Shown: positions 2,702 to 63,904, numbered from the stretch's first letter. The stretch is 64,000 nt of DNA from Escherichia coli (GCF_022846255.1 NZ_AP025682.1); one strand, 5' to 3'. Translations and numbers: made by a program. The notes: generated from the letters alone by a model not told the origin.

Positions 2702-2704
2702 ATA

Positions 2705-2730
2705 CGTTCCCGGTACAGCAACCGGGAACG
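2705..2730. terminator. Hairpin between convergent yqhC and yghB (putative bidirectional terminator)
   Basis: 10-bp inverted repeat cgttcccggt / accgggaacg with 6-nt loop; weak U-tract. Confidence 0.45.
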
Positions 2731-2740
2731 GGGAAAATCG

Positions 2741-3400
2741 TCAGGCGTTACAGTATTTTTTTTTAATCACCACAAACAGCGTGCCCAACAAGCCAGCGGT
2801 TAACAAGGCAATTGGCAGGATCATCAGGAACGTCATTACCTGATCTTCATGGCGTTTAACGAACGGAATTATACTTAAGGCATAGCCGAAACTGGTTACC
2901 ACGCTGACCCACAGCAATCCGCTTAACCAGTTGAAAAACTGGAAGCGGCGGTTTGGCAGACCGGAAATTCCCGCCATGGTTGGCAGCAACGTACGGACAA
3001 ATGCAAGAAAACGTCCAGCCAGCAGCGCCAGCAGACCGTGGCGGTCAAACATGCAGGTGGCGCGCTGGTGATATTTAGCAGGAAGCTGTGCCAGCCAGCC
3101 TTTCACCGTTTTGGTATTCCCTAACCAGCGCCCCTGAATATAACTTAGCCAGCAGCCCAGACTTGCTGCGGCGGTCAGAATCGCAATCGTAGGCAGAAAA
3201 TCCATAACCCCCTGGGCAATCAATGCGCCAGCCAATATCAACAAGCTGTCGCCTGGCAAAAATGAGGCGGGCAGCAGGCCGTTTTCTAAAAACAGCGTGG
3301 CAAACATGACAAAGTAAACAACGCTAACAATATGAGGATCCGCCAGCGCGGCAAAGTCGTGTTGCCAGAGCGCAGCGATGATATCTTGAATAACAGCCAT
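2741..3400 (-). CDS. yghB: DedA-family inner membrane protein, 219 aa
   Basis: ORF-track protein, multi-TM hydrophobic profile, position downstream of metC as in E. coli. Confidence 0.9.
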
Positions 3401-3539
3401 GGACTTTCCTGTGGAACAGCGTTTAAGCCTTTATCTGCCTATTGTACTCCTGAATCGTCCGGGACGCCTTGATCCCGGACGCAACAATTTAAGACTTTTC
3501 ACAATAAAATGTCTGCAAAATTGTCCAAAAGTGGCAATG

Positions 3540-4727: not shown

Positions 4728-4745
4728 GTCGGGATTCCTGTTTTT

Positions 4746-4761
4746 ATACGTCTGGATGTCT
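4746..4761. promoter_or_regulatory. Candidate MetJ operator (tandem met boxes) upstream of metC
   Basis: Tandem 8-mers atacgtct and ggatgtct match met-box consensus AGACGTCT at 7/8 and 6/8, 19-34 bp upstream of metC start. Confidence 0.5.
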
Positions 4762-4978
4762 AAACTAGCATGAATATTCGCGGGCGCATCCTGAAGAATT
4801 GGCATAAAGCAGAAAATTTTCGCAAATGGCGTGCTGGTGACTTTTTTACTGCGTAAACGCAAGGAAAAGAAAGCAAAGGTACGGCAGTATGCAAATAGTA
4901 ATGAGAACGACTATCAATTCGACGTCGTTTTGATATTATTATGCACAGATTTTGTGACTTGCGTCCTGGAGATACACA

Positions 4979-5713
4979 GTGGGTAATAATTTAATGCAGA
5001 CGGACCTCTCCGTCTGGGGTATGTATCAGCACGCCGATATTGTCGTTAAGTGCGTGATGATTGGGCTTATTTTGGCCTCCGTAGTCACCTGGGCAATCTT
5101 CTTCAGTAAGAGCGTGGAGTTCTTCAATCAGAAGCGTCGTCTTAAGCGCGAGCAGCAACTGCTGGCTGAAGCGCGTTCCTTAAACCAGGCCAACGATATC
5201 GCCGCTGATTTTGGTAGCAAAAGCTTGAGCCTGCATTTGCTCAATGAAGCGCAGAATGAGCTGGAACTGTCAGAAGGCAGCGACGATAACGAAGGTATTA
5301 AAGAACGTACCAGCTTCCGTCTGGAGCGTCGGGTCGCCGCAGTAGGTCGTCAAATGGGCCGCGGTAACGGCTATCTGGCAACCATCGGCGCGATTTCGCC
5401 GTTCGTTGGTCTGTTTGGTACGGTCTGGGGCATCATGAACAGCTTTATTGGTATCGCGCAAACGCAGACCACTAACCTGGCAGTCGTTGCGCCGGGTATT
5501 GCAGAAGCTCTGTTAGCAACGGCAATCGGCCTCGTGGCAGCGATTCCTGCGGTCGTTATCTATAACGTATTTGCACGCCAGATTGGCGGCTTTAAAGCGA
5601 TGCTGGGTGATGTTGCAGCGCAGGTATTGTTGCTGCAAAGCCGTGACCTGGATCTGGAAGCCAGCGCCGCTGCGCATCCGGTTCGTGTCGCACAAAAATT
5701 ACGTGCAGGATAA
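4979..5713 (+). CDS. exbB: TonB-system energiser ExbB (MotA/TolQ/ExbB proton channel), 244 aa
   Basis: GTG start; protein MGNNLMQTDLSVWGMYQ... matches remembered ExbB; followed by exbD. Confidence 0.93.
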   Translation: MGNNLMQTDLSVWGMYQHADIVVKCVMIGLILASVVTWAIFFSKSVEFFNQKRRLKREQQLLAEARSLNQANDIAADFGSKSLSLHLLNEAQNELELSEGSDDNEGIKERTSFRLERRVAAVGRQMGRGNGYLATIGAISPFVGLFGTVWGIMNSFIGIAQTQTTNLAVVAPGIAEALLATAIGLVAAIPAVVIYNVFARQIGGFKAMLGDVAAQVLLLQSRDLDLEASAAAHPVRVAQKLRAG

Positions 5714-5719
5714 TGTCCG

Positions 5720-6145
5720 ATGGCGATGCATCTTAACGAAAACCTCGACGATAACGGCGAAATGCATGATATCAACGTGACGCCGTTTATCGACGTGATG
5801 TTGGTTTTGCTGATTATCTTTATGGTGGCGGCACCGTTAGCGACGGTAGATGTGAAGGTGAATTTGCCTGCTTCTACCAGCACGCCGCAGCCGCGCCCGG
5901 AAAAACCGGTTTATCTGTCGGTGAAAGCAGACAACTCGATGTTTATTGGTAACGATCCGGTCACCGATGAAACAATGATTACGGCGTTGAATGCGTTAAC
6001 CGAAGGCAAGAAAGACACCACCATCTTCTTCCGTGCGGATAAAACTGTCGATTACGAGACGTTGATGAAGGTAATGGATACGCTGCATCAGGCGGGTTAC
6101 CTGAAAATAGGTCTGGTCGGCGAAGAAACTGCGAAAGCGAAATAA
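5720..6145 (+). CDS. exbD: TonB-system protein ExbD, 141 aa
   Basis: ORF-track protein; single N-terminal TM; operon partner of exbB. Confidence 0.93.
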   Translation: MAMHLNENLDDNGEMHDINVTPFIDVMLVLLIIFMVAAPLATVDVKVNLPASTSTPQPRPEKPVYLSVKADNSMFIGNDPVTDETMITALNALTEGKKDTTIFFRADKTVDYETLMKVMDTLHQAGYLKIGLVGEETAKAK

Positions 6146-10471: not shown

Positions 10472-11590
10472 ATGACTGGAGATAACACCCTCATCCATTC
10501 TCACGGCATTAACCGTCGTGATTTCATGAAGCTTTGTGCAGCATTAGCCGCCACCATGGGGTTAAGTAGCAAAGCCGCTGCAGAGATGGCCGAATCGGTT
10601 ACTAACCCGCAGCGTCCGCCAGTTATCTGGATTGGCGCGCAGGAGTGCACCGGTTGTACGGAATCTCTGCTTCGTGCAACGCATCCAACGGTAGAAAACC
10701 TCGTGCTGGAGACTATCTCTCTGGAGTATCACGAAGTGCTTTCCGCCGCCTTCGGTCATCAGGTCGAAGAGAACAAACATAACGCTCTCGAGAAGTACAA
10801 AGGGCAGTATGTGTTAGTGGTGGATGGTTCCATCCCATTAAAAGATAACGGTATTTATTGCATGGTTGCCGGTGAGCCGATTGTGGATCACATCCGCAAA
10901 GCGGCGGAAGGCGCAGCAGCCATTATCGCTATCGGTTCCTGCTCTGCGTGGGGCGGCGTCGCCGCAGCTGGAGTTAACCCAACTGGCGCAGTCAGCCTGC
11001 AAGAAGTTCTGCCTGGCAAAACCGTTATCAATATTCCTGGCTGCCCGCCGAACCCGCACAACTTCCTGGCGACCGTTGCGCACATCATCACTTATGGCAA
11101 ACCGCCGAAACTGGATGACAAAAACCGTCCGACTTTCGCCTATGGTCGTCTGATTCACGAACACTGTGAACGTCGCCCGCACTTCGATGCTGGTCGTTTT
11201 GCCAAAGAGTTCGGTGATGAAGGCCACCGCGAAGGCTGGTGCCTGTACCACCTTGGCTGTAAAGGGCCAGAAACTTACGGCAACTGCTCAACGCTGCAAT
11301 TCTGCGATGTTGGCGGCGTGTGGCCGGTAGCGATTGGTCACCCGTGCTATGGCTGTAACGAAGAAGGTATCGGCTTCCATAAAGGCATCCATCAGCTTGC
11401 CAACGTCGAAAACCAGACTCCGCGTTCACAGAAACCGGACGTTAACGCTAAAGAAGGCGGCAACGTCTCGGCAGGCGCTATTGGTTTGCTCGGCGGTGTG
11501 GTTGGGCTGGTTGCCGGTGTCAGCGTGATGGCGGTGCGTGAACTGGGTCGTCAGCAAAAGAAAGATAACGCTGACTCACGGGGAGAATAA
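10472..11590 (+). CDS. hybO: Hydrogenase 2 small subunit, Tat-exported, 372 aa
   Basis: Twin-arginine motif RRDFMK near N-terminus; Cys-rich FeS ligands; C-terminal TM anchor. Confidence 0.95.
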
Positions 11591-11592
11591 CC

Positions 11593-12579
11593 GTGAACAG
11601 ACGTAATTTTATTAAAGCAGCCTCCTGCGGGGCATTGCTGACGGGCGCGCTGCCGTCTGTCAGTCATGCGGCTGCTGAAAACCGCCCGCCAATTCCGGGA
11701 TCGCTGGGGATGTTGTACGACTCGACCTTGTGCGTAGGCTGTCAGGCTTGCGTCACCAAGTGTCAGGATATCAACTTCCCTGAACGTAACCCGCAAGGGG
11801 AACAGACCTGGTCGAACAACGACAAACTGTCGCCGTATACCAATAACATCATTCAGGTGTGGACCAGCGGCACAGGGGTCAACAAAGACCAGGAGGAGAA
11901 TGGCTACGCGTACATTAAGAAACAGTGTATGCACTGCGTCGATCCGAACTGTGTCTCTGTGTGCCCGGTCTCTGCGCTGAAAAAAGATCCGAAAACCGGC
12001 ATTGTCCATTACGACAAAGATGTGTGCACCGGCTGCCGTTACTGCATGGTCGCCTGCCCATACAACGTGCCGAAGTACGACTACAACAACCCGTTTGGTG
12101 CGCTGCATAAGTGCGAGTTGTGCAACCAGAAAGGTGTGGAACGTCTCGATAAAGGCGGTCTGCCTGGCTGCGTAGAAGTGTGCCCGGCGGGCGCGGTGAT
12201 TTTTGGTACGCGTGAAGAGCTGATGGCGGAGGCGAAAAAACGTCTGGCGCTGAAGCCGGGCAGCGAATACCACTATCCGCGTCAGACGCTGAAATCTGGC
12301 GACACTTACCTGCATACGGTGCCGAAATATTATCCGCATCTGTACGGCGAGAAAGAGGGCGGCGGTACTCAGGTTCTGGTACTGACGGGTGTGCCTTATG
12401 AAAATCTCGACCTGCCGAAACTGGACGATCTTTCTACTGGTGCGCGTTCCGAACATGTCCAACACACCCTGTATAAAGGCATGATGCTACCACTGGCTGT
12501 GCTGGCGGGCTTAACCGTGCTGGTTCGTCGCAACACTAAAAACGACCATCACGACGGAGGAGACGATCATGAGTCATGA
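11593..12579 (+). CDS. hybA: Hydrogenase 2 4Fe-4S ferredoxin-type subunit, 328 aa
   Basis: GTG start; RRNF Tat motif; multiple CxxCxxCxxxCP ferredoxin motifs. Confidence 0.95.
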
Positions 12580-13747
12580 TCCACAACCGCTGGGCGGCAA
12601 AATCATCAGTAAACCGGTCATGATTTTTGGACCGTTAATCGTCATCTGTATGCTCCTGATTGTGAAGCGTCTGGTGTTCGGTCTGGGCTCTGTCTCCGAC
12701 CTGAACGGCGGCTTCCCGTGGGGCGTGTGGATCGCGTTTGACCTGCTGATCGGTACCGGCTTTGCCTGTGGCGGCTGGGCGCTGGCGTGGGCAGTATACG
12801 TCTTTAACCGTGGGCAATACCATCCGCTGGTGCGTCCGGCGCTGTTGGCGAGTCTGTTTGGTTATTCACTGGGTGGCTTGTCGATCACTATCGACGTGGG
12901 TCGCTACTGGAACCTGCCGTACTTCTACATTCCGGGTCACTTCAACGTGAACTCGGTACTGTTCGAGACGGCGGTCTGTATGACCATCTACATCGGTGTG
13001 ATGGCACTGGAGTTTGCTCCGGCATTGTTTGAACGTCTGGGCTGGAAGCTGTCACTCAAACGTCTGAACAAGGTGATGTTCTTTATCATCGCGCTTGGTG
13101 CGCTGCTGCCAACTATGCACCAGTCTTCAATGGGATCGCTGATGATCTCGGCGGGCTACAAGGTGCATCCGCTGTGGCAAAGCTATGAAATGTTGCCGCT
13201 GTTCTCGCTGCTGACGGCGTTCATCATGGGCTTCTCGATTGTCATCTTTGAAGGTTCGTTGGTGCAGGCGGGTCTGCGTGGCAACGGTCCGGATGAAAAG
13301 AGTCTGTTCGTTAAGCTGACCAACACCATCAGTGTGTTGCTGGCGATTTTCATCGTGCTGCGCTTTGGCGAGCTTATCTATCGCGACAAGCTGTCGTTAG
13401 CGTTTGCCGGTGACTTCTACTCCGTGATGTTCTGGATTGAAGTCCTGCTGATGCTCTTCCCGCTGGTCGTTCTGCGTGTGGCGAAGTTGCGTAATGATTC
13501 CCGCATGCTGTTCCTGTCAGCACTGAGTGCACTGTTAGGTTGTGCAACCTGGCGTCTGACCTATTCGCTGGTGGCATTCAACCCGGGTGGCGGTTACGCC
13601 TACTTCCCGACCTGGGAAGAACTGTTGATTTCTATTGGTTTTGTGGCTATTGAGATTTGCGCTTATATCGTACTCATTCGTCTACTGCCGATACTTCCTC
13701 CTTTAAAACAAAACGATCATAATCGTCATGAGGCGAGCAAAGCATGA
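12569..13747 (+). CDS. hybB: Hydrogenase 2 integral membrane (cytochrome b-type) subunit, 392 aa
   Basis: Polytopic hydrophobic protein; overlaps hybA stop by 11 nt. Confidence 0.93.
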
Positions 13748-15447
13748 GCCAGAGAATTACTATTGATCCGGTAACCCGTATTGAAGGGCATTTACGCATC
13801 GATTGCGAAATCGAAAATGGCGTCGTTTCGAAAGCATGGGCTTCCGGTACCATGTGGCGCGGCATGGAAGAGATCGTGAAAAACCGCGATCCGCGCGATG
13901 CATGGATGATTGTGCAACGTATCTGTGGCGTATGTACTACCACTCACGCGCTGTCTTCCGTTCGTGCGGCAGAAAGTGCGCTGAATATCGACGTTCCGGT
14001 TAACGCGCAATACATCCGTAACATCATTCTGGCTGCGCACACCACGCATGACCATATTGTTCATTTCTATCAGCTTTCGGCGCTGGACTGGGTGGACATC
14101 ACTTCTGCACTGCAAGCCGATCCGACCAAAGCCTCCGAAATGCTGAAAGGCGTTTCGACCTGGCATCTGAACAGCCCGGAAGAGTTCACCAAAGTTCAGA
14201 ACAAGATCAAAGATCTGGTTGCCAGCGGTCAGTTGGGTATTTTCGCCAATGGCTACTGGGGTCACCCGGCAATGAAACTGCCGCCGGAAGTGAACCTGAT
14301 TGCGGTAGCGCACTACCTGCAGGCGCTGGAGTGCCAGCGTGACGCTAACCGCGTTGTGGCGCTGCTGGGCGGTAAAACGCCGCATATTCAGAACCTGGCG
14401 GTAGGTGGTGTCGCGAACCCGATCAACCTCGACGGTCTGGGTGTGCTGAACCTTGAGCGCCTGATGTACATCAAGTCCTTCATCGACAAGCTGAGCGACT
14501 TTGTTGAGCAGGTTTACAAGGTTGATACTGCAGTTATCGCTGCGTTCTACCCGGAATGGCTGACGCGCGGTAAAGGTGCGGTGAACTACCTGAGCGTGCC
14601 GGAATTCCCGACCGACAGTAAAAATGGCAGCTTCCTGTTCCCGGGCGGCTACATTGAGAATGCGGATCTGTCCTCGTATCGTCCGATCACTTCTCATTCC
14701 GATGAATACCTGATCAAAGGGATTCAGGAAAGCGCGAAGCACTCCTGGTATAAAGACGAAGCGCCGCAGGCACCGTGGGAAGGTACCACCATTCCGGCTT
14801 ATGATGGTTGGTCTGACGACGGTAAATATTCCTGGGTGAAATCACCGACTTTCTACGGCAAAACGGTAGAAGTGGGTCCGCTGGCTAACATGCTGGTGAA
14901 ACTGGCGGCAGGACGCGAGTCTACCCAGAACAAACTGAATGAAATCGTTGCGATTTATCAGAAACTGACTGGCAACACGCTGGAAGTGGCGCAGCTGCAC
15001 TCCACGCTGGGCCGTATTATTGGTCGTACCGTTCACTGCTGTGAATTGCAGGATATCCTGCAAAATCAATACAGTGCACTGATCACCAATATCGGCAAAG
15101 GCGATCACACCACCTTTGTGAAGCCGAACATTCCGGCAACGGGTGAGTTCAAAGGCGTAGGCTTCCTCGAAGCACCGCGCGGTATGCTCTCTCACTGGAT
15201 GGTGATCAAAGACGGTATTATCAGTAACTACCAGGCGGTTGTTCCATCAACCTGGAACTCTGGCCCGCGTAACTTCAATGATGACGTCGGTCCTTACGAG
15301 CAGTCGCTGGTGGGTACACCGGTTGCCGATCCGAATAAACCGCTGGAAGTGGTGCGTACCATTCACTCCTTCGACCCGTGCATGGCCTGTGCGGTACACG
15401 TAGTGGATGCCGACGGCAACGAAGTGGTTTCAGTGAAGGTTCTGTAA
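13744..15447 (+). CDS. hybC: Hydrogenase 2 [NiFe] large subunit, 567 aa
   Basis: N-terminal RICGVCTTTH and C-terminal DPCMACAVH Ni-binding Cys motifs. Confidence 0.95.
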   Translation: MSQRITIDPVTRIEGHLRIDCEIENGVVSKAWASGTMWRGMEEIVKNRDPRDAWMIVQRICGVCTTTHALSSVRAAESALNIDVPVNAQYIRNIILAAHTTHDHIVHFYQLSALDWVDITSALQADPTKASEMLKGVSTWHLNSPEEFTKVQNKIKDLVASGQLGIFANGYWGHPAMKLPPEVNLIAVAHYLQALECQRDANRVVALLGGKTPHIQNLAVGGVANPINLDGLGVLNLERLMYIKSFIDKLSDFVEQVYKVDTAVIAAFYPEWLTRGKGAVNYLSVPEFPTDSKNGSFLFPGGYIENADLSSYRPITSHSDEYLIKGIQESAKHSWYKDEAPQAPWEGTTIPAYDGWSDDGKYSWVKSPTFYGKTVEVGPLANMLVKLAAGRESTQNKLNEIVAIYQKLTGNTLEVAQLHSTLGRIIGRTVHCCELQDILQNQYSALITNIGKGDHTTFVKPNIPATGEFKGVGFLEAPRGMLSHWMVIKDGIISNYQAVVPSTWNSGPRNFNDDVGPYEQSLVGTPVADPNKPLEVVRTIHSFDPCMACAVHVVDADGNEVVSVKVL

Positions 15448-17028: not shown

Positions 17029-17114
17029 TGTAGGCCTGATAAGACGCGGCAGCGTCGCATCAGGCATTGTGCTCGATTGCCGGATGCGGCGTGAACGCCT
17101 TATCCGGCCTACAT
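17029..17114. repeat. REP/BIME element (two inverted REP units)
   Basis: Classic REP sequences gccggatgcggcgtgaacgccttatccggcctac and taggcctgataagacgcggcagcgtcgcatcaggc. Confidence 0.85.
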
Positions 17115-53878: not shown

Positions 53879-55371
53879 TGGTGCCTGTAGCACAGGAAAC
53901 CACCGCTAACACCGTGCGTCTGCCCTACAGTTTCAGCCGTCGGTTTAGCCTGGTGGCATGGTGCGAAGCGTCGCTGGAGATCCTCCATGTTCATCCGTTG
54001 TCGCTCTCTGTTTTGCAGGAGCTGCAGCGGGGGCTGAACGCGTCTTTTACGCTGAGGCAAATCGACGAGGCCGAATTTGAACAGCGGCTGAATGCGGTCT
54101 GGCAGCGGGACTCTTCCGAGGCCCGCCAGCTGATGGAAGATCTCGGTTCTGCTGAGGACTTTTTTACTCTCGCAGAAGAACTACCGGAAACGGAAGATCT
54201 GCTGGAAAGTGACGACGATGCGCCAATCATCAAACTGATCAACGCCATGTTGGCAGAGGCGATTAAAGAAGGCGCTTCGGATATCCACATCGAGACGTTT
54301 GAAAAGAGTCTGGTGATCCGTTTTCGTGTTGACGGCACACTACATGAAATGCTGCGTCCGGGGCGCAAACTGGCCTCGCTGCTGGTATCGCGTATTAAGG
54401 TGATGGCACGGCTGGATATCGCCGAAAAACGCGTACCGCAGGATGGGCGCATTGCGCTGCTGCTGGGCGGTCGGGCGATTGACGTGCGTGTCTCCACCAT
54501 GCCTTCCGCCTGGGGGGAACGGGTGGTGCTGCGACTGCTGGACAAAAACCAGGCTCGCCTGACGCTGGAGCGTCTGGGTTTAAGTCTCGAACTGACTGCG
54601 CAGTTGCGCCAGCTGTTACACAAACCGCACGGCATTTTTCTGGTGACGGGGCCGACCGGTTCCGGCAAAAGCACCACGCTGTACGCTGGATTGCAGGAGC
54701 TGAACAACCACTCGCGTAACATTCTCACGGTTGAAGACCCTATCGAATACATGATTGAAGGGATCGGTCAGACGCAGGTTAACACCCGCGTCGGCATGAC
54801 CTTCGCCCGTGGCCTGCGCGCGATTTTGCGTCAGGACCCGGATGTGGTGATGGTCGGTGAAATCCGCGATACCGAAACCGCAGAAATCGCTGTTCAGGCT
54901 TCACTGACCGGACACCTGGTACTTTCCACGCTGCATACCAACACGGCGGTGGGGGCGATCACGCGTTTGCAGGATATGGGCGTTGAGCCTTTCCTGCTCT
55001 CTTCCAGTCTGACGGGCGTGATGGCGCAGCGACTGGTTCGCACGCTGTGTCCCGATTGCCGCCAGTCCGCGCCTGCCACCGACGAAGAAAAACGCCTGCT
55101 GGGGATTACCGATGCGCGAACCGTCACGCTGTACCATCCGCAGGGCTGTCCCGCCTGTAATCACAAAGGTTTTCGCGGACGTACTGCCATCCATGAGCTG
55201 ATCGTGGTGGACGCCACATTACGTGATTTGATCCACCGTCAGGCCGGGGAACTGGAGCTGGAACGTTATGTCCGGCAACACTCTGCGGGTATCCGCAGCA
55301 ACGGCATTGAGAAAGTGCTCGCCGGAGAAACCTCTCTCGATGAAGTTCTGCGGGTAACCATGGAGGCGTAA
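53878..55371 (+). CDS. gspE: Type II secretion system ATPase, 497 aa
   Basis: Walker [10 protein letters not shown]; tetracysteine CPDC...CPAC motif. Confidence 0.93.
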
Positions 55372-56594
55372 TGGCACTGTTTTACTATCAGGCGCTGGAG
55401 CGTAATGGTCGCAAAACCAAAGGAATGATTGAGGCGGATTCCGCGCGTCATGCCCGTCAATTGTTGCGTGGTAAAGAGCTTATCCCCGTGCACATTGAAG
55501 CCCGGCTGAATGCTTCGACAGGGGGAATGTTGCAGCGTCGGTGGCATGCACATCGTCGCGTGGCGGCGGCAGATTTGGCGCTGTTCACACGCCAACTGGC
55601 AACGCTGGTGCAGGCAGCAATGCCGCTGGAAACCTGCTTACAGGCGGTCAGTGAGCAAAGTGAAAAACTGCATGTAAAAAGCCTCGGAATGGCGCTGCGC
55701 AGCCGGATTCAGGAAGGTTATACCCTGTCGGACAGCCTGCGCGAACATCCCCGCGTCTTTGACTCCCTGTTTTGTTCGATGGTCGCTGCCGGAGAAAAAT
55801 CCGGACATCTCGACGTGGTGCTCAATCGCCTGGCGGATTACACCGAACAGCGGCAGCGTCTGAAATCACGCCTGCTGCAGGCCATGCTCTACCCGCTGGT
55901 ACTGCTGGTGGTGGCAACGGGCGTGGTCACTATTTTGCTGACGGCAGTAGTGCCGAAAATTATCGAACAGTTTGATCATCTCGGACACGCGCTGCCTGCC
56001 TCCACCCGAATGCTCATCGCCATGAGCGACACGTTACAGACCAGCGGCGTGTACTGGCTGGCGGGTTTGCTGGGGCTTCTGGTGCTGGGGCAACGGCTAC
56101 TCAAAAATCCTGCGATGCGCCTGCGCTGGGATAAAACCTTGCTGCGTTTGCCCGTGACGGGGCGTGTTGCGCGCGGACTGAATACGGCGCGTTTTTCCCG
56201 CACATTAAGCATCCTCACCGCCAGCAGTGTTCCGCTGCTGGAAGGCATTCAGACCGCCGCCGCCGTGTCGGCAAATCGTTATGTCGAGCAACAACTGCTG
56301 CTGGCGGCAGATCGCGTCCGCGAAGGAAGCAGCCTGCGCGCCGCGCTGGCGGAGTTGCGCCTGTTCCCGCCGATGATGCTGTACATGATCGCCTCCGGCG
56401 AACAGAGCGGTGAACTGGAAACCATGCTTGAACAGGCCGCGGTCAACCAGGAACGGGAATTTGATACCCAGGTGGGGCTGGCGTTAGGGCTGTTTGAGCC
56501 GGCGCTGGTGGTGATGATGGCGGGCGTGGTGCTGTTTATCGTCATCGCCATCCTCGAACCGATGCTGCAACTGAACAATATGGTTGGAATGTAA
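55371..56594 (+). CDS. gspF: Type II secretion system inner-membrane platform protein, 407 aa
   Basis: Duplicated GspF domain architecture, three TM segments. Confidence 0.92.
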   Translation: MALFYYQALERNGRKTKGMIEADSARHARQLLRGKELIPVHIEARLNASTGGMLQRRWHAHRRVAAADLALFTRQLATLVQAAMPLETCLQAVSEQSEKLHVKSLGMALRSRIQEGYTLSDSLREHPRVFDSLFCSMVAAGEKSGHLDVVLNRLADYTEQRQRLKSRLLQAMLYPLVLLVVATGVVTILLTAVVPKIIEQFDHLGHALPASTRMLIAMSDTLQTSGVYWLAGLLGLLVLGQRLLKNPAMRLRWDKTLLRLPVTGRVARGLNTARFSRTLSILTASSVPLLEGIQTAAAVSANRYVEQQLLLAADRVREGSSLRAALAELRLFPPMMLYMIASGEQSGELETMLEQAAVNQEREFDTQVGLALGLFEPALVVMMAGVVLFIVIAILEPMLQLNNMVGM

Positions 56595-56610
56595 TTTACG
56601 GAGTTATCAC

Positions 56611-57066
56611 ATGAATTCGTTATCCCGCACACAAAAACCACGGGCAGGTTTTACCCTGCTGGAAGTGATGGTGGTGATTGTTATTCTTGGCGTCCTGGCA
56701 AGTCTGGTGGTGCCTAACCTGTTGGGCAACAAAGAGAAAGCCGATCGGCAAAAAGCCATCAGCGATATCGTGGCGCTGGAGAATGCGCTGGATATGTACC
56801 GACTGGATAACGGGCGTTATCCGACTACCGAACAGGGGCTGGAGGCGCTGATCCAGCAACCGGCCAATATGGCGGATTCCCGTAACTACCGTACCGGTGG
56901 ATACATTAAACGACTGCCAAAGGATCCGTGGGGCAATGATTATCAGTATCTCAGCCCGGGTGAAAAAGGGCTGTTTGATGTTTATACCCTGGGAGCAGAT
57001 GGTCAGGAAAACGGGGAGGGCGCTGGCGCAGATATCGGTAACTGGAATTTGCAGGAGTTTCAGTAA
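56611..57066 (+). CDS. gspG: Type II secretion major pseudopilin, 151 aa
   Basis: Prepilin leader ending G|FTLLEVMVV; ORF-track start trimmed to MNSLSR with GGAG RBS. Confidence 0.9.
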   Translation: MNSLSRTQKPRAGFTLLEVMVVIVILGVLASLVVPNLLGNKEKADRQKAISDIVALENALDMYRLDNGRYPTTEQGLEALIQQPANMADSRNYRTGGYIKRLPKDPWGNDYQYLSPGEKGLFDVYTLGADGQENGEGAGADIGNWNLQEFQ

Positions 57067-57069
57067 TCA

Positions 57070-57633
57070 GTGCCTGAACGCGGATTCACACTTCTGGAAA
57101 TCATGCTGGTGATTTTCCTTATCGGCCTTGCCAGTGCGGGCGTGGTACAGACGTTTGCGACCGCTTCAGAGCCGCCTGCGAAAAAAGCGGCGCAGGATTT
57201 TCTGACTCGCTTTGCGCAGTTTAAGGACAGGGCAGTGATCGAAGGGCAAACACTCGGTGTGCTAATCGACCCGCCAGGTTACCAGTTTATGCAGCGTCGT
57301 CACGGGCAATGGTTGCCCGTTTCTGCGACCCGGTTATCGGCACAGGTTACGGTGCCGAAACAGGTGCAGATGCTGTTACAACCCGGAAGTGATATCTGGC
57401 AGAAGGAATATGCGCTGGAGCTGCAGCGTCGTCGCCTGACGCTGCACGATATTGAACTGGAGCTGCAAAAAGAGGCGAAAAAGAAGACACCGCAGATCCG
57501 TTTTTCGCCTTTTGAACCCGCCACGCCGTTTACACTGCGTTTTTACGCGTCGGCACAAAACGCGTGTTGGGCGGTAAAGCTGGCGCACGATGGCGTGTTA
57601 TCCCTCAATCAATGTGATGAGGGGATGCCATGA
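57070..57633 (+). CDS. gspH: Type II secretion minor pseudopilin H, 187 aa
   Basis: GTG start; prepilin motif RGFTLLEIMLV. Confidence 0.88.
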   Translation: MPERGFTLLEIMLVIFLIGLASAGVVQTFATASEPPAKKAAQDFLTRFAQFKDRAVIEGQTLGVLIDPPGYQFMQRRHGQWLPVSATRLSAQVTVPKQVQMLLQPGSDIWQKEYALELQRRRLTLHDIELELQKEAKKKTPQIRFSPFEPATPFTLRFYASAQNACWAVKLAHDGVLSLNQCDEGMP

Positions 57634-58001
57634 AGCGTGGATTTACCTTGCTGGAAGTAATGCTCGCGCTGGCGATTTTTGCGTTGGCCGCCATGGCGGT
57701 GTTACAGATCGCCAGCGGCGCGCTGAGTAATCAGCAAATCCTTGAAGAAAAAACGGTAGCGGGCTGGGTAGCTGAAAACCAGACCGCACTGCTTTACCTG
57801 ATGACCCGTGAACAACGAGCGGTCAGGCACCAGGGCGAGAGTGATATGGCAGGAAGCCGCTGGTACTGGCGAACCACACCGCTGAGTACAGGCAACGCGC
57901 TGCTCCAGGCAGTGGATATTGAAGTCAGCCGTCACGAAGACTTTTCGTCGGTGATTCAGTCACGACGCGCCTGGTTTAGCGCCGTGGGAGGCCAACAGTG
58001 A
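57630..58001 (+). CDS. gspI: Type II secretion minor pseudopilin I, 123 aa
   Basis: Prepilin motif RGFTLLEVMLALAIF. Confidence 0.88.
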   Translation: MKRGFTLLEVMLALAIFALAAMAVLQIASGALSNQQILEEKTVAGWVAENQTALLYLMTREQRAVRHQGESDMAGSRWYWRTTPLSTGNALLQAVDIEVSRHEDFSSVIQSRRAWFSAVGGQQ

Positions 58002-58603
58002 GAAGGACTTGCGCTGGTTTCACGTTACTGGAAATGCTGGTGGCAATTGCCATTTTTGCCTCACTGGCACTGATGGCGCAGCAGGTGACAAACGGCGTTA
58101 CACGCGTGAATAGCGCCGTCGCCGGACACGATCAAAAACTAAACCTCATGCAGCAAACGATGAGTTTTTTGAACCACGATCTGACACAAATGATGCCGCG
58201 TCCGGTAAGAGGCGATCAGGGCCAGCGTGAACCAGCGTTACTGGCGGGCGCTGGCGTGCTGGCGTCTGAGAGTGAAGGGATGCGTTTTGTGCGCGGCGGC
58301 GTGGTTAATCCGTTGATGCGTCTGCCGCGCAGTAATCTGCTCACCGTCGGTTACCGCATTCATGGTGGTTATCTCGAACGGTTAGCCTGGCCACTGACCG
58401 ATGCGGCAGGCAGCGTGAAGCCAACAACGCAAAAATTAATCCCGGCGGATTCGCTCCGTTTGCAGTTCTACGACGGCACGCGCTGGCAGGAGAGCTGGTC
58501 ATCAGTGCAGGCGATTCCTGTGGCAGTACGCATAACCCTGCATTCGCCGCAATGGGGCGAAATTGAACGCATCTGGTTGTTACGCGGGCCGCAATTATCA
58601 TGA
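57998..58603 (+). CDS. gspJ: Type II secretion minor pseudopilin J, 201 aa
   Basis: Prepilin motif AGFTLLEMLVAIAIF. Confidence 0.88.
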   Translation: MRRTCAGFTLLEMLVAIAIFASLALMAQQVTNGVTRVNSAVAGHDQKLNLMQQTMSFLNHDLTQMMPRPVRGDQGQREPALLAGAGVLASESEGMRFVRGGVVNPLMRLPRSNLLTVGYRIHGGYLERLAWPLTDAAGSVKPTTQKLIPADSLRLQFYDGTRWQESWSSVQAIPVAVRITLHSPQWGEIERIWLLRGPQLS

Positions 58604-59577
58604 TCACCTCACCACCAAAACGCGGAATGGCACTGGTCGTGGTGCTGGTATTGCTGGCGGTTATGATGCTGGTGACCATCACGCTTTCCGGGCGGATGCA
58701 GCAACAACTTGGGCGAACGCGCAGCCAGCAGGAGTACCAGCAGGCGCTGTGGTACAGCGCCAGTGCGGAAAGCCTGGCGTTGAGCGCACTCAGTCTGAGC
58801 CTGAAAAATGAAAAGCGCGTGCATCTGGCGCAGCCGTGGGCTTCCGGCCCTCGTTTTTTCCCACTGCCGCAGGGGCAAATTGCCGTCACCCTGCGTGACG
58901 CCCAGGCCTGCTTTAACCTGAATGCCCTCGCTCAGCCGACAACGGCGTCGCGTCCTATCGCGGTACAACAACTGATTGCCCTGATCTCGCGCCTGGATGT
59001 GCCTGCTTATCGGGCCGAACTGATAGCCGAAAGCCTGTGGGAGTTTATTGACGAGGACCGCAGCGTGCAGACGCGTCTGGGGCGTGAAGACAGCGAGTAT
59101 CTCGCCCGCTCGGTGCCGTTCTACGCCGCTAATCAACCGCTGGCTGATATCAGCGAAATGCGCGTGGTACAGGGAATGGACGCCGGGCTTTATCAAAAAC
59201 TGAAACCGTTGGTCTGTGCGCTGCCGATGGCCCGCCAGCAAATCAACATCAATACATTAGATGTCACGCAAAGTGTGATTCTTGAGGCGCTGTTTGACCC
59301 GTGGTTAAGCCCTGTTCAGGCGCGGGCGTTATTACAACAACGTCCGGCGAAGGGCTGGGAAGATGTCGATCAGTTTCTTGCACAGCCGCTACTCGCAGAC
59401 GTCGATGAGCGTACTAAAAAACAGCTAAAAACCGTCCTGAGCGTGGACAGCAATTACTTCTGGCTGCGTTCAGATATCACCGTGAATGAGATTGAACTGA
59501 CGATGAACTCGTTAATTGTCCGCATGGGCCCACAACACTTTTCTGTTCTCTGGCATCAGACAGGAGAAAGTGAGTGA
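58600..59577 (+). CDS. gspK: Type II secretion minor pseudopilin K, 325 aa
   Basis: N-terminal TM plus size/position typical of GspK. Confidence 0.88.
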   Translation: MITSPPKRGMALVVVLVLLAVMMLVTITLSGRMQQQLGRTRSQQEYQQALWYSASAESLALSALSLSLKNEKRVHLAQPWASGPRFFPLPQGQIAVTLRDAQACFNLNALAQPTTASRPIAVQQLIALISRLDVPAYRAELIAESLWEFIDEDRSVQTRLGREDSEYLARSVPFYAANQPLADISEMRVVQGMDAGLYQKLKPLVCALPMARQQININTLDVTQSVILEALFDPWLSPVQARALLQQRPAKGWEDVDQFLAQPLLADVDERTKKQLKTVLSVDSNYFWLRSDITVNEIELTMNSLIVRMGPQHFSVLWHQTGESE

Positions 59578-60752
59578 GTTCCATCCTTGAGATTTTTTTC
59601 CCGCTTTGCGCCTCCGACACCATCCGCTGGCAGCGCCGTACCGCCGACGTGGAGTGCGGCATCTGGCCTGACGTTGCTGACGAACGTCTCCAGCAATGGC
59701 TGCAAACTGATGCGATTCGACTCTACATTCCCGGCGAATGGATCAGCGTCTGGCAGGTTGAACTGCCTGATGTGCCCCGCAAGCAGATACCGACGATTCT
59801 GCCCGCCTTGCTGGAAGAAGAGCTGAACCAGGATATCGATGAACTGCATTTTGCCCCGTTGAAAATCGACCAGCAACTGGCAACCGTAGCTGTGATTCAC
59901 CAGCAGCATATGCGCAACATTGCGCAGTGGTTGCAGGCAAACGGCATCACCCGCGCTATCGTCGCGCCGGACTGGATGTCCATTCCTTGTGGGTTTATGG
60001 CTGGCGATGCGCAACGGGTTATCTGCCGCATCGATGAATGCCGGGGATGGAGCGCCGGGCGAACGCTGGCTCCGGTCATGTTCCGCGCACAGCTCAATGA
60101 GCAGGATTTACCGCTTTCACTAACCGTGGTCGGCATTGCACCGGAAGAACTGTCTGCATGGGCTGGTGCAGACGCCGAACGCCTGACCGTTACGGCTCTG
60201 CCCGCCATTACCACTTATGGCGAACCGGAAGGGAACCTGTTAACAGGGCCGTGGCAGCCTCGTGTCAGCTACCGAAAACAGTGGGCGCGCTGGCGGGTGA
60301 TGATTCTGCCGATATTGCTGATTCTGGTTGCGCTGGTAGTGGAACGGGGCGTGACGTTATGGAGCGTCAGCGAACAGGTGGCGCAAAGCCGCACCCAGGC
60401 GGAGAAACAGTTCTTAACGCTATTCCCGGAGCAGAAGCGGATTGTGAATTTACGCTCTCAGGTGACGATGGCGCTGAAAAAATATCGCCCACAGGCCGAC
60501 GATACCCGGCTGCTCGCCGAGTTGTCAGCGATAGCCAGCACCCTGAAATCAGCGTCACTTTCCGACATCGAAATGCGTGGTTTCACCTTTGATCAAAAAC
60601 GCCAGACGCTCCACCTTCAGTTGCGGGCAGCAAACTTTGCCAGTTTCGACAAACTGCGTAGCGCACTGGCGGCAGATTATGTTGTGCAACAGGACGCATT
60701 ACAGAAAGAGGGTGATGCGGTTTCCGGCGGCGTAACGTTGCGGAGGAAATAA
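59574..60752 (+). CDS. gspL: Type II secretion inner-membrane protein L, 392 aa
   Basis: GTG start overlapping gspK stop; single central TM; operon position. Confidence 0.85.
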   Translation: MSSILEIFFPLCASDTIRWQRRTADVECGIWPDVADERLQQWLQTDAIRLYIPGEWISVWQVELPDVPRKQIPTILPALLEEELNQDIDELHFAPLKIDQQLATVAVIHQQHMRNIAQWLQANGITRAIVAPDWMSIPCGFMAGDAQRVICRIDECRGWSAGRTLAPVMFRAQLNEQDLPLSLTVVGIAPEELSAWAGADAERLTVTALPAITTYGEPEGNLLTGPWQPRVSYRKQWARWRVMILPILLILVALVVERGVTLWSVSEQVAQSRTQAEKQFLTLFPEQKRIVNLRSQVTMALKKYRPQADDTRLLAELSAIASTLKSASLSDIEMRGFTFDQKRQTLHLQLRAANFASFDKLRSALAADYVVQQDALQKEGDAVSGGVTLRRK

Positions 60753-60753
60753 C

Positions 60754-61290
60754 ATGTTACGCGATAAATTTATTCACTATTTTCAGCAATGGCGTGAACG
60801 CCAGTTAAGCCGTGGCGAACACTGGCTAGCACAGCACCTGGCGGGGCGTTCGCCGCGTGAAAAAGGCATGTTACTGGCAGCGGTGGTGTTCCTGTTTAGC
60901 GTCGGATATTACGTCCTCATCTGGCAGCCGTTGAGCGAACGGATAGAACAACAGGAGACGATGTTGCAACAGCTGGTGGCGATGAACGCGCGACTGAAGA
61001 GCGCCGCGCCGGATATAATTGCAGCGCGAAAATCCGCCACGACAACGCCAGCACAGGTATCGCGGGTCATCAGTGACAGCGCTTCCGCGCACTCAGTGGT
61101 CATCAAGCGGATAGCCGAGCGCGGGGAGAATATTCAGGTCTGGATAGATCCGGTGGTGTTTAATGACCTGCTGAACTGGTTAAACGCGCTGGATGAAAAG
61201 TATGCGCTGCGGGTGACACAAATTGATGTCAGCGCAGGTGAGAAGCCTGGGATGGTGAATGTGCAGCGGCTGGAGTTTGGACGGGGGTAG
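60754..61290 (+). CDS. gspM: Type II secretion inner-membrane protein M, 178 aa
   Basis: Small bitopic protein following gspL; also known as yghD. Confidence 0.85.
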   Translation: MLRDKFIHYFQQWRERQLSRGEHWLAQHLAGRSPREKGMLLAAVVFLFSVGYYVLIWQPLSERIEQQETMLQQLVAMNARLKSAAPDIIAARKSATTTPAQVSRVISDSASAHSVVIKRIAERGENIQVWIDPVVFNDLLNWLNALDEKYALRVTQIDVSAGEKPGMVNVQRLEFGRG

Positions 61291-62060
61291 GTATTGCCAT
61301 TTCCTTAACCCCACCTGATAACCCTTAGCCCAAGGGTGAGTGCGGAACTGTCAAACCCGCTCACCGGGCTGAGTTCCGATGTAGCAAGATTTATCTCCCT
61401 CCAGAGCACCACGGAATGTTCGACAATACTGTAGGAATTCGTTTTTCACCATGTAGCCTTCGTTAATCTACACCTTTCTAAGACTGTAAAGATGCTTAAG
61501 TGTTTTGACACATTATGATTATTAATAGTTGTAATAAATCATTGAGTAACAATTGATAGGTCAAAACATATAGGATAATTCTTATGTGATCTGTATTTTG
61601 TGTAGCCTGGAAATTAGTAAAATTACTGGAGATAATCAGAAAGGGAATTTCAAATAAGCATAATAATTTCCAGGGAAACTATTCGTCGATTTTAAGAAAT
61701 GTCTGCTCAGGTATATCTACTGAGGGATGGTGTTGGTTGTAACGCTGGTTAAAATAAACACACAAAATAATCAGGATGTATATTTTAATCGACGAAAATA
61801 ATTACCTTCGGGATTATTGATGCGACTTAAATAACACCATTTAAACGTGATATAAATCACAAATATGGCTGTGAAGAGGGTGCTGTAGATATAAATAAGA
61901 AGTACATGAGTGAATTTTAAATAGGAAAATAGTTTCTCGCTAAACAATTTATTGGTAATCAATCGCATGCGTTCTGGTTTGAGACAGATTGCAGGTGTTG
62001 CTACGCATAAAATTCATAGGCGGTATTATAATCAAGTAGTTAACAGTAATAGTAAAAAAT

Positions 62061-62076
62061 AATTTCTTGCGAAATT
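62061..62076. repeat. Palindrome AATTTC-N4-GAAATT, copy 1, in kpsM leader
   Basis: aatttcttgcgaaatt read directly. Confidence 0.8.
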
Positions 62077-62176
62077 AGCGGCCCATTTTGAATAAGTGTG
62101 TTCCGGAGTAATCCAGAACGCATGCTGCTTTACGTCTTTTTCAAGCCATATTGGTTAAGCAAAAAGAGGTAGAAAT

Positions 62177-62192
62177 AATTTCCTGAGAAATT
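62177..62192. repeat. Palindrome AATTTC-N4-GAAATT, copy 2, in kpsM leader
   Basis: aatttcctgagaaatt read directly; preceded by gaaat as in copy 3. Confidence 0.8.
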
Positions 62193-62311
62193 AACTCTAC
62201 ATTCTGAAACGGCCAGTTTTCTGAAATTACCAGAAGACCGAATACATTCATGCCTGAAGAATGGATTAGAAGAAACGAGACGGAAATAGATCTATTTATC
62301 CCTGCGGAAAT

Positions 62312-62327
62312 AATTTCTGATGAAATT
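62312..62327. repeat. Palindrome AATTTC-N4-GAAATT, copy 3, in kpsM leader
   Basis: aatttctgatgaaatt read directly. Confidence 0.8.
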
Positions 62328-62422
62328 GTTTTCGGCTATTAAAAAGGTCAAACCGGCTGAGTGAATTTTATCCAGTTACAAATAAGCATTACCTCCAGTG
62401 TATTGGTAGCTGTTAAGCCAAG

Positions 62423-62434
62423 GGCGGTAGCGTA
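62423..62434 (+). promoter_or_regulatory. ops element (RfaH recruitment site, JUMPstart core) in kpsM leader
   Basis: GGCGGTAGCGTA, containing the 8-bp ops core GGCGGTAG, 32 bp upstream of kpsM ATG. Confidence 0.8.
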
Positions 62435-62462
62435 CCTGAAGAGATTAGGATCACATCATCAA

Positions 62463-63239
62463 ATGGCAAGAAGTGGATTTGAAGTCCAGAAAGTCACCGT
62501 AGAGGCATTATTTCTACGAGAAATACGAACACGCTTTGGTAAGTTCCGTCTGGGATATTTGTGGGCGATTCTCGAACCCTCTGCGCATTTGCTGATACTG
62601 TTGGGCATTTTTGGTTACATTATGCACCGCACGATGCCAGACATCTCATTCCCGGTGTTTTTACTTAATGGCCTGATTCCCTTTTTTATCTTTAGCAGTA
62701 TCAGCAATCGTTCTGTAGGTGCTATTGAAGCGAATCAGGGGCTGTTTAATTATCGACCAGTAAAACCCATCGATACGATCATTGCGCGTGCATTGCTTGA
62801 GACACTGATTTACGTTGCTGTTTATATATTGCTTATGCTTATCGTCTGGATGGCAGGCGAATATTTCGAAATAACAAACTTTTTACAACTTGTGCTTACC
62901 TGGAGTTTGTTAATCATTCTTTCATGTGGCGTTGGCTTAATATTCATGGTCGTTGGTAAAACCTTCCCTGAAATGCAAAAGGTCCTGCCGATACTGCTTA
63001 AGCCGCTGTATTTCATCTCCTGCATCATGTTCCCTCTACACTCGATTCCGAAGCAATACTGGTCATATCTACTCTGGAACCCATTAGTGCATGTCGTAGA
63101 GTTAAGCCGCGAGGCAGTTATGCCTGGCTATATCAGCGAAGGCGTGAGTCTGAACTACCTTGCAATGTTCACTCTGGTCACCCTGTTCATCGGTCTGGCG
63201 TTATACCGAACGCGTGAAGAGGCAATGCTGACATCATGA
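62463..63239 (+). CDS. kpsM: Capsule polysaccharide export ABC transporter permease, 258 aa
   Basis: ORF-track 292 aa trimmed to MARSGFEVQKVTVEALFLREIRTRFGK (ABC-2 permease signature region); AT-rich codon usage. Confidence 0.9.
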   Translation: MARSGFEVQKVTVEALFLREIRTRFGKFRLGYLWAILEPSAHLLILLGIFGYIMHRTMPDISFPVFLLNGLIPFFIFSSISNRSVGAIEANQGLFNYRPVKPIDTIIARALLETLIYVAVYILLMLIVWMAGEYFEITNFLQLVLTWSLLIILSCGVGLIFMVVGKTFPEMQKVLPILLKPLYFISCIMFPLHSIPKQYWSYLLWNPLVHVVELSREAVMPGYISEGVSLNYLAMFTLVTLFIGLALYRTREEAMLTS

Positions 63240-63904
63240 TTAAGATTGAGAATTTGACGAAGTCATATCGCACGCCAACGGGTCGACATTATGTCTTTAA
63301 GGATTTAAACATCGAAATCCCTTCAGGAAAAAGTGTCGCCTTTATTGGTCGTAATGGTGCGGGTAAATCAACGTTACTGAGAATGATTGGTGGCATTGAC
63401 CGCCCCGATAGCGGAAAGATCATCACCAATAAAACGATATCATGGCCAGTCGGCCTTGCAGGTGGATTTCAGGGAAGTTTAACCGGACGCGAAAATGTAA
63501 AATTTGTCGCGAGGTTATACGCGAAGCAAGAAGAACTGAAAGAGAAAATTGAGTTTGTTGAAGAATTTGCCGAACTCGGTAAGTACTTCGATATGCCGAT
63601 TAAGACTTACTCATCTGGTATGCGATCGCGTTTAGGCTTTGGTTTAAGCATGGCATTTAAGTTTGATTATTATATCGTCGATGAAGTAACCGCAGTCGGT
63701 GATGCCAGGTTTAAAGAAAAATGCGCTCAATTGTTTAAAGAAAGGCATAAAGAATCTAGCTTTTTAATGGTTTCACATAGTTTGAATTCATTGAAAGAGT
63801 TTTGTGATGTGGCCATTGTGTTTAAAGATGATAATGCAGTTAGTTTTCATGAGGATGTTCAGGAGGGGATAGAGGAGTATCGTGTAAAACAAACCTGCAA
63901 ATAA
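63236..63904 (+). CDS. kpsT: Capsule polysaccharide export ABC transporter ATP-binding protein, 222 aa
   Basis: Walker A GRNGAGKST, ABC signature YSSGMRSRL, Walker B YYIVDE; overlaps kpsM stop. Confidence 0.92.
   Translation: MIKIENLTKSYRTPTGRHYVFKDLNIEIPSGKSVAFIGRNGAGKSTLLRMIGGIDRPDSGKIITNKTISWPVGLAGGFQGSLTGRENVKFVARLYAKQEELKEKIEFVEEFAELGKYFDMPIKTYSSGMRSRLGFGLSMAFKFDYYIVDEVTAVGDARFKEKCAQLFKERHKESSFLMVSHSLNSLKEFCDVAIVFKDDNAVSFHEDVQEGIEEYRVKQTCK

Follow-up and report, generated by a model that had tools for sequence, protein, structure and literature searches.

In extraintestinal Escherichia coli, group 2 capsules rank among the major virulence factors. The closest described relatives of the locus analyzed here are the region 3 segments of the K5 and K1 capsule clusters, on which the primary work is reportedly that of Stevens 1997 and Xue 2009. 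In region 3, the PR3 promoter, with a -10 but no -35 element, is situated 741 bp upstream of kpsM, and H-NS and SlyA bind on both sides of its transcription start, with H-NS footprints from -135 to -21 and from +141 to +219 (PMC8960920). The 12-nt ops element ends 28 nt before kpsM, and RfaH loaded at ops is required for read-through into region 2 (PMC8960920). In CFT073, the chromatin immunoprecipitation signal of RfaH starts at the kps ops site, and the occupancy of RNA polymerase collapses downstream when RfaH is missing (PMC9765446). In the exporter, an arginine-lined canyon of KpsMT holds the Kdo-glycolipid, and KpsMT hands the polymer on to a KpsE cage (PMC11041684). Here we describe a stretch of 64,000 nt of E. 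coli DNA (GCF_022846255.1, NZ_AP025682.1), called the window below. Its positions 61291 to 63904 almost certainly constitute region 3 of a group 2 (ATP-binding cassette [ABC] transporter-dependent) capsule cluster located between pheV and gspM/yghD.

The region 3 layout, PR3, and antitermination by RfaH are textbook biology, and recognizing them in the window is routine annotation. Small, conserved hairpins in the leader upstream of kpsM are possibly the only new detail, and they are treated separately.

Identity and boundaries of the locus

Two overlapping genes on the + strand define the locus. The first, kpsM (62463 to 63239), encodes the 258-amino-acid (aa) ABC-2 type permease of a capsule exporter (Pfam PF01061, ABC2_membrane, E value of 1.2e-15), and the second, kpsT (63236 to 63904), encodes its 222-aa ATPase (Pfam PF00005, ABC_tran, 9e-17); they share 4 bp (ATGA, 63236 to 63239). 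All 258 residues of KpsM are identical to those of KpsM from the K13 reference strain NCTC9022, and KpsT is identical to its counterpart there at 220 of 222 positions. KpsT carries the Walker A motif GRNGAGKST, the signature SSGMRSRL, and the Walker B motif YYIVDE. Both open reading frames (ORFs) are intact and under purifying selection, with a diversity at codon positions 1 and 2 of 0.027 to 0.031 versus 0.15 to 0.24 at 4-fold sites. The ATG start of kpsM at 62463, giving the 258-aa form, is common to the reference proteins, and a putative Shine-Dalgarno sequence, AGGA, could be read at 62447 to 62450 (+), 12 nt 5' of this ATG. A mechanical ORF call placed the start of kpsM at a GTG at 62361, giving a 292-aa product that spans the JUMPstart element described below, and a 278-aa form is found in some public annotations.

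The gene preceding the locus is gspM/yghD (60754 to 61290, +; NCBIfam NF007274, 409 bits with a cutoff of 352; Pfam T2SSM, 1e-46). It is the last gene of the type II secretion system beta operon sslE-pppA-gspS2-gspC..M, a layout seen in the complete genome NZ_CP027579, and it forms the core-side flank of the capsule cluster; both sslE and gspC to gspM are found upstream of the kps genes within the window. When the window was compared with K-12 (L006), homology stopped at the yghD/gspM stop codon (TAG at 61288 to 61290 in the window; TAA at 3091 to 3093 in L006). Because the K-12 homology ends at this codon, the capsule island starts directly after gspM, and judged from this alignment, the pheV-side island junction abuts the end of the gspM/yghD gene with zero spare bases. 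In K-12, which is without kps, pheV lies 148 bp from yghD. The GC content was 0.51 to 0.61 in the gsp genes, 0.33 to 0.36 in the leader that follows, and 0.40 to 0.46 in kpsMT.

An Rfam scan revealed a single JUMPstart element in the window. This 39-nt element at 62396 to 62434 (+), with a small hairpin (TTGGT/GCCAA), matched positions 1 to 38 of the 38 positions of model RF01707 with 58.5 bits (gathering score, 35; E value of 3.4e-12). It contains the ops 8-mer GGCGGTAG at 62423 to 62430 (+), separated by 32 nt (62431 to 62462) from the ATG of kpsM. The full ops 12-mer on the non-template strand, GGCGGTAGCGTA, the loading site of RfaH, occupies 62423 to 62434 (+) and ends 28 nt before kpsM, as in the published region 3; as the string GGCGGTAGNNTR, it is unique in the window. 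It ends in A, whereas the ops consensus is GGCGGTAGnnTG. This terminal A was invariant in 47 of 47 aligned kps leaders. The 8-mer alone was set aside as evidence for ops. It is overrepresented, with six observed occurrences in the window versus 1.47 expected, and since it is weak evidence by itself, we relied on the covariance model match. The other five copies (14397, 21535, and 36939 on the + strand; 26191 and 53831 on the - strand) all lie within long open frames, without the 12-mer or a JUMPstart context. They resemble the intragenic ops-like sites of CFT073, which do not load RfaH (PMC9765446).

An earlier note on this DNA, made from the sequence, had proposed AT-rich kpsM and kpsT genes with ABC-2 permease and ATPase motifs, an ops core 32 bp upstream of kpsM, and a position directly after gspM, and it had taken the whole for region 3 of a group 2 cluster. 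The motifs and the base composition agree with the Pfam matches and GC values given above, the ops core falls inside the RF01707 match at the distance claimed, and the end of K-12 homology at the yghD stop codon places the locus where the note had put it. The assignment to region 3 was borne out by the identity with K13 proteins, the placement of JUMPstart and ops, the layout in 1,417 complete genomes, and the downstream genes.

This layout is widespread. The segment from 61291 to 64000 matched 1,707 of 5,426 complete E. coli genomes, with 80% or more of the query covered in 1,417 of them, and the matches always overlay an ABC permease and an ATPase. In NZ_CP027579 (L001), the best match at 96.7% identity and one with the same region 2, the gene order is sslE-pppA-gspS2-gspC..M-kpsM-kpsT followed by two region 2 genes, then kpsS-C-U-D-E-F on the opposite strand, insertion sequence (IS) remnants, tRNA-Phe (pheV), yqgA, and speC.

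A rearranged or degraded locus was seen at the same site in NZ_CP151017 (L020, 2692 to 4500), where yghD is followed by only the initial quarter of the leader, a kpsM fragment with a frameshift, and then a polysaccharide export gene.

Downstream genes and capsule type

The window stops 96 nt past kpsT. The sequence beyond this point was obtained from a Logan assembly contig of run DRR322657 (L003), which was reached via an exact-protein look-up of KpsT. This contig is 100.000% identical, without gaps, to window positions 53236 to 64000 (10,765 bp) and runs 10 kb further. By this identity, positions 63905 to 64000 (+) are the first 96 nt of a 135-nt spacer between kpsT and a krkA-type gene. That gene, encoding a 1,116-aa region 2 polymerase, lies at 10805 to 14155 (+) of the contig, and its start corresponds to window position 64040, 40 nt past the window end. 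It is followed on the + strand by a gene for a 204-aa protein and then, on the opposite strand, by kpsS, kpsC, kpsU, and kpsD. The domains agree with these names: Capsule_synth in KpsS and KpsC, CMP-Kdo synthetase in KpsU, and Poly_export in KpsD. Direct observations are the gene identities, the positions of the elements, the coupling of kpsM and kpsT, and the genes that follow in the identical contig, with their group 2 layout.

The earlier note had placed region 2 just beyond the window end and had proposed extending the sequence downstream in search of region 2 and kpsFEDUCS. Both were found: the contig supplies region 2 together with kpsS, kpsC, kpsU, and kpsD, and NZ_CP027579 adds kpsE, kpsF, and then pheV. 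Capsule biosynthesis genes, the lack of which the note had named as speaking against its reading, are thus present downstream.

Could kpsMT nonetheless be a remnant or an inactive fragment, or belong to a group 3-type or rearranged locus, rather than open a functional group 2 cluster? Region 2 lies outside the window, some genomes do have truncated or rearranged versions, such as that of NZ_CP151017, and rearrangements of kpsM, kpsT, and the K-specific genes are frequent (PMC13171606). However, both ORFs are intact under purifying selection, the leader and JUMPstart are complete, the contig holds a complete region 2 plus kpsS, kpsC, kpsU, and kpsD in group 2 order, and kpsFEDUCS and pheV are likewise present in all three complete genomes that share this region 2. 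We therefore regard such a remnant as very improbable. Export of another glycan (O antigen through Wzm/Wzt, a teichoic acid-like polymer, or a Vi-like polymer) deserves next to no credence: although the best named NCBIfam matches of KpsT are the TagH (teichoic acid) and Wzt (galactan) exporters, and KpsM weakly matches VexB and Wzm, with an ABC-2 fold common to all these exporters, the top NCBIfam family of the permease is KpsM (9e-56, versus 9e-15 for VexB), the protein is identical to K13 KpsM, the PDB matches to KpsMT chains (6e-61 and 2e-83) are far above those to Wzm/Wzt or TarGH (1e-7 and 1e-39), and the neighbors in the identical contig are kpsS, kpsC, kpsU, and kpsD.

Some observations weigh against the assignment to region 3 of a group 2 cluster. 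Regions 2 and 1 are deduced from the contig of another sample, identical over the shared 10.8 kb. The position of PR3 was set by the published distance alone, and a consensus promoter scan from 61200 to 64000 was uninformative, giving 4 promoter-like sites versus 8.2 expected by chance. The canyon residue Arg89 of the structurally characterized KpsM from Schlegelella thermodepolymerans (StKpsM) is Ser78 here; Ser78 is common to every E. coli KpsM with this sequence, including those of capsule-producing reference strains. Finally, the NCBIfam equivalog model for KpsM, NF050053, was the best match of the permease, yet its score of 189.6 bits is under the cutoff of 300. This last point reflects the NCBIfam models, not the gene: the equivalog model for KpsS likewise scored 398 with a cutoff of 600 on a genuine E. 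coli KpsS (contig positions 15252 to 16442). Because both models fail on genuine group 2 proteins, RefSeq names these proteins only "ABC transporter permease" and "capsule biosynthesis protein."

The region 2 genes point to the type of capsule. Residues 1 to 356 of the 1,116-aa protein show three conservative differences from the crystal chain of the KrkA GT140 Kdo-transferase (9yfx; E value of 2e-236), residues 396 to 729 match Bcs3 (ribosyltransferase-phosphatase), residues 395 to 852 match a ribofuranosyltransferase, and a HAD domain covers residues 397 to 596. The contig thus has the KrkA-type layout, in which a GT140 retaining Kdo transferase is fused to a phosphoribosyl pyrophosphate-dependent ribosyltransferase and a HAD phosphatase. 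Compared with K13 KrkA (WP_001336789), the protein is 93% identical overall and about 98% identical over the first ~1,020 aa, and the last ~95 aa are divergent. Homologues of KrkA beside the same acetyltransferase (L008 to L016 and L003) were 1,116, 1,120, 1,122, or 1,124 aa long, and this variation in length may sit in an Asn-Gly-rich stretch, NGNGNGNG, of the divergent C-terminal tail. The 204-aa protein is a hexapeptide-repeat O-acetyltransferase that aligns with the 245-aa CatB-like K13 enzyme over just 51 aa, at 41% identity; by this comparison it is not the K13/K23 enzyme.

It has been reported that KrkA suffices to make the ribose-Kdo backbone of K13, K20, and K23, with the serotype set by the acetyltransferase (PMC12887879), and according to the kTYPr supplement, K20 and K120 have a two-gene region 2 with a distinct acetyltransferase (PMC13171606). 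Because region 2 of the contig encodes a KrkA-type polymerase and a hexapeptide O-acetyltransferase, the capsule is probably a ribose-Kdo polymer of the K13/K20/K23 family, of type K20 or K120. The complete region 2 was present at 99% identity or more in only 3 of the 5,426 complete E. coli genomes, all three with kpsFEDUCS and pheV; exact-protein look-up found the 204-aa acetyltransferase frequently in draft assemblies. The presence of kpsMT beside gspM marks the strain as a likely capsule producer. The kTYPr study connects the K13/K20/K23 family with invasive disease, K13_K23 being among the most strongly associated capsule types (PMC13171606).

Positions 1 to 6000 of the window share 99.5% identity with many E. 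coli genomes, and the gsp-kps part (49449 to 64000) is 95.6 to 96.7% identical to the best of the 5,426 complete genomes, the kps stretch reaching at best 96.7%; exact copies of it exist in public draft and Logan assemblies. The sslE/glc part is only 91% identical to the best gsp-kps genome. When window positions 53236 to 62963 were aligned with a second, near-identical contig (L002), 89 mismatches were counted, of which 87 fell in 53236 to 61440 (84 of them after 59000), none in 61441 to 62959, and 2 in kpsM. This clustering suggests a recombination break near 61440, where the GC content drops.

The untranslated leader

Between gspM and kpsM lies an AT-rich leader of 1,172 bp (61291 to 62462, +) that would comprise the PR3 region and a long 5' untranslated region (UTR). 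It carries no annotated features in any matching RefSeq genome, and a six-frame translation revealed no pseudogene. A 65-aa ORF on the minus strand (61771 to 61968) was rejected as a gene, as it has no Pfam match, is unannotated in the matching genomes, and gave no sign of a pseudogene in that translation. A terminator scan of 61200 to 64000 found none.

To place PR3, we used the published distance of 741 bp, which puts the transcription start at 61722 (62463 - 741). The presumed -10 region, GGTATATCTAC, and the start together span 61710 to 61722 (+). Just upstream of this start, the block from 61710 to 61719 was nearly invariant (pi, 0.02) in a sample of 47 distinct leaders, of which 38 came from metagenome contigs, eight from loci in E. 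coli genomes or assemblies, and one from the window. In these 47 leaders, nucleotide diversity was 0.082 outside the hairpin motifs described below and 0.029 from JUMPstart to the ATG. For the same contigs, 4-fold sites had a diversity of 0.150 in kpsM and 0.238 in kpsT, and codon positions 1 and 2 had diversities of 0.027 and 0.031, respectively. Since its diversity is lower than that at the 4-fold sites of both genes, the leader is constrained.

A deletion of 116 bp (62057 to 62172) was found in 20 of the 47 leaders, including those of NCTC9022 and of ABU 83972-type genomes; the window does not have it. The deletion extends exactly from copy 4 to copy 5 of the motif described below and fuses the two. 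It leaves a leader of about 625 nt that lacks one of the hairpins as well as the 3' arm of one long-range helix.

Repeated hairpins upstream of kpsM

Six copies of a 20-nt motif, AAATAATTTC-N4-GAAATT, were found in the leader, each forming a small inverted repeat. They start at 61661, 61796, 61927, 62057, 62173, and 62308 and are thus spaced by 135, 131, 130, 116, and 135 bp; all are given on the + strand. Copy 1 (TAATAATTTCCAGGGAAACT, 61661 to 61680) would lie about 40 to 60 nt upstream of the transcription start; its center varies (AGG, AGT, CAA, ACA, or CAG), and the TTTC/GAAA arms are kept. Copy 2 (AAATAATTACCTTCGGGATTATTG, 61796 to 61819) has the stem AATAATT/GATTATT with an inner CC/GG, and its seventh pair switches from U.G to U-A in 16 of 47 sequences. 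Copy 3 (AAATAGTTTCTCGCTAAACA, 61927 to 61946) has a short stem, GTTT/AAAC, in which every change is G.U compatible. Copy 4 (AAATAATTTC TTGC GAAATTA, 62057 to 62077), the one lost in the 116-bp deletion, is a perfect 7-bp inverted repeat with a 4-nt loop. Copy 5 is AAATAATTTC CTGA GAAATTA (62173 to 62193), and copy 6 is AAATAATTTC TGAT GAAATT (62308 to 62327), with a stem that is invariant in the 47 sequences and a loop that reads TGCT, TGAT, CGGC, or TTTT.

The core pattern AATTTCNNNNGAAATT occurred three times exactly and four times with at most one mismatch, against expectations of 0.0005 and 0.0125, respectively, from dinucleotide shuffles of the leader. Among the 47 leaders, the diversity of the stems was 0.031, a value as low as this being reached by only 2 of 5,000 random window sets, and that of the loops was 0.234, as high as in none of 5,000 sets. 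Because the loop value is close to the rates at 4-fold sites and the stem value is close to those at codon positions 1 and 2, the loops behave as neutral and the stems are constrained like protein-changing sites. Hypermutability of the loops was rejected, as their diversity matches the value for synonymous sites in kpsT (0.238) and comes close to the one for kpsM (0.150). A recent tandem duplication was likewise rejected, the units outside the motif being no more alike than random leader windows (mean of 0.31 versus 0.28), and TRF found no tandem array in the leader.

A scan of 100,044 species genomes with a two-copy pattern gave 27 matches. Two were from Escherichia, both in kps leaders, and the 25 in distant taxa are presumably chance or unrelated matches. 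We did not find a description of these leader repeats in the literature; Stevens 1997 or Xue 2009 may already describe them.

Two long-range perfect inverted repeats were also present, one of 13 bp (61965 to 61977 with 62113 to 62125) and one of 10 bp (61682 to 61691 with 61787 to 61796). The latter spans the published PR3 start and shows G.U intermediates, and in the leader lineage that diverges most (L018 type) it carries GC-to-AU double changes.

We then asked whether the stems behave as RNA or as DNA. A hand-written structure comprising the six hairpins, the JUMPstart hairpin, and the 13-bp helix was scored in 2,268 cells, of which 97.2% were able to pair when read as the + strand versus 92.0% as the - strand. 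Among the stem polymorphisms, 16 sites kept pairing through G.U and 7 transitions were incompatible (3 to 4 when only sequences with both arms were considered); the binomial P value of this bias was 0.047, or about 0.006 under the stricter both-arms count. Unpaired leader positions showed no strand asymmetry of transitions. Two-sided covariation was almost absent, with a single pair, and the pair count was not significant in a shuffle control. RNAalifold recovered hairpins 2, 5, and 6 and also predicted a helix between 61683 to 61689 and 61787 to 61793. The GC-to-AU double changes in this helix stem from one lineage of linked haplotypes, and the compensatory pairs, which trace to one or two linked haplotypes, were discounted as strong evidence. 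Folding energy was uninformative as strand-specific evidence for RNA, since the z-scores against shuffles were -2.99 for the + strand and -3.75 for the - strand; both strands fold about equally because the motif is palindromic. Drawn from sequence comparison, the evidence on RNA versus DNA in the leader stems is suggestive only.

It is quite possible, if short of probable, that the six palindromes act as double-stranded DNA, as binding sites of a dimeric regulator or as sites at which H-NS/SlyA filaments nucleate, or that they are nonfunctional relics. The palindromic motif with its nearly equal folding on both strands would fit such sites, as would the lack of significant two-sided covariation in the shuffle control. 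The published H-NS footprints would overlap copies 1 and 3 (PMC8960920), and the published transcription start falls after copy 1. GAAAT-A-ATTTC may resemble IclR-type boxes. What argues against DNA sites is the bias of stem polymorphisms to + strand G.U pairing (16 versus 7, or 3 to 4), where a symmetric DNA site would give 50:50, and the higher pairing as the + strand, accompanied by no transition asymmetry in the unpaired leader. Relics are unlikely given the low stem diversity relative to the rest of the leader (0.031 versus 0.082; 2 of 5,000 random sets).

More tentatively, and with doubt prevailing, the six copies could fold into a series of AU-rich hairpins in the RNA of the 741-nt 5' UTR, possibly setting the transcription that reaches ops and RfaH; the leader would then be a constrained and structured element, beyond an AT-rich landing site for H-NS. 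Candidate routes would be temperature-dependent folding, pausing, or shielding from Rho or RNases. If this were true, the RNA hairpin array would explain in physical terms how the "large 5' UTR" affects region 3 expression, an effect that has been reported without an explanation, and the 116-bp deletion, which removes one copy, would be a natural expression variant. An array that is functional would also make the role of the 741-nt untranslated leader directly testable.

Elsewhere in the window, other Rfam matches above the gathering score were C0719 (42356 to 42577, -; 295.8 bits), ES173 (379 to 442, -; 92.5 bits), and naRNA4 (17033 to 17109, both strands).

Expected expression and export

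For this strain, the promoter position, the action of H-NS, SlyA, and RfaH, the export mechanism, and the capsule chemistry are carried over from the literature, in which thermoregulated, RfaH-dependent expression and a phosphatidylglycerol-oligo-Kdo-anchored capsule are described for K1, K5, and CFT073 (PMC8960920, PMC9765446). By analogy, transcription would start at PR3, about 741 bp 5' of kpsM, and cross the untranslated leader, which is long, AT-rich, and a target of H-NS and SlyA binding. At ops (62423 to 62434, within JUMPstart), the paused RNA polymerase would expose the non-template strand and load RfaH, which would allow the polymerase to continue past kpsM and kpsT and to enter the serotype-specific, AT-rich region 2. 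A dimer of the KpsM permease and a dimer of the KpsT ATPase would then make up the inner membrane ABC transporter. Together with KpsE and KpsD, KpsMT would export a polysaccharide built on a phosphatidylglycerol-oligo-Kdo anchor.

Comparison with known systems

The locus shares most of its features with region 3 of K5 and K1 (PMC8960920): the same gene pair with a 4-bp overlap between kpsM and kpsT, an ops ending 28 nt before kpsM, a long AT-rich leader with a length that fits the published 741 bp, transcription toward region 2, and a location beside the gsp genes at pheV. In region 2, the window lineage differs from both, having neither the neu genes of K1 nor the kfi genes of K5.

The K13 cluster of NCTC9022 (PMC12887879) is similar in its proteins, with an identical KpsM, a KpsT matching at 220 of 222 residues, and a homologue of its KrkA at the start of region 2 in the contig. 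The lineage of the window differs from NCTC9022 in the last ~95 aa of KrkA, in the acetyltransferase, in having no IS element, and in a leader without the 116-bp deletion.

Full-length homology extends to the KpsMT-KpsE complex of S. (Caldimonas) thermodepolymerans, known from the cryo-electron microscopy structures 8TSH, 8TSI, and 8TSW (PMC11041684), with E values of 6e-61 for KpsM and 2e-83 for KpsT (8TSI). The StKpsM canyon residues Arg35, Trp45, and Arg94 correspond to R24, W34, and R83 here, so that three of the four tested residues are kept; this is a different species, and the sequence identity is only moderate.

Finally, the JUMPstart elements of O-antigen, colanic acid, core lipopolysaccharide, and hemolysin operons (RF01707) have the same 39-nt element, with the hairpin, the ops core on the non-template strand, and an untranslated leader. 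In most RfaH operons JUMPstart lies 40 to 70 nt after the promoter, whereas here it stands at the end of a structured leader of about 700 nt.

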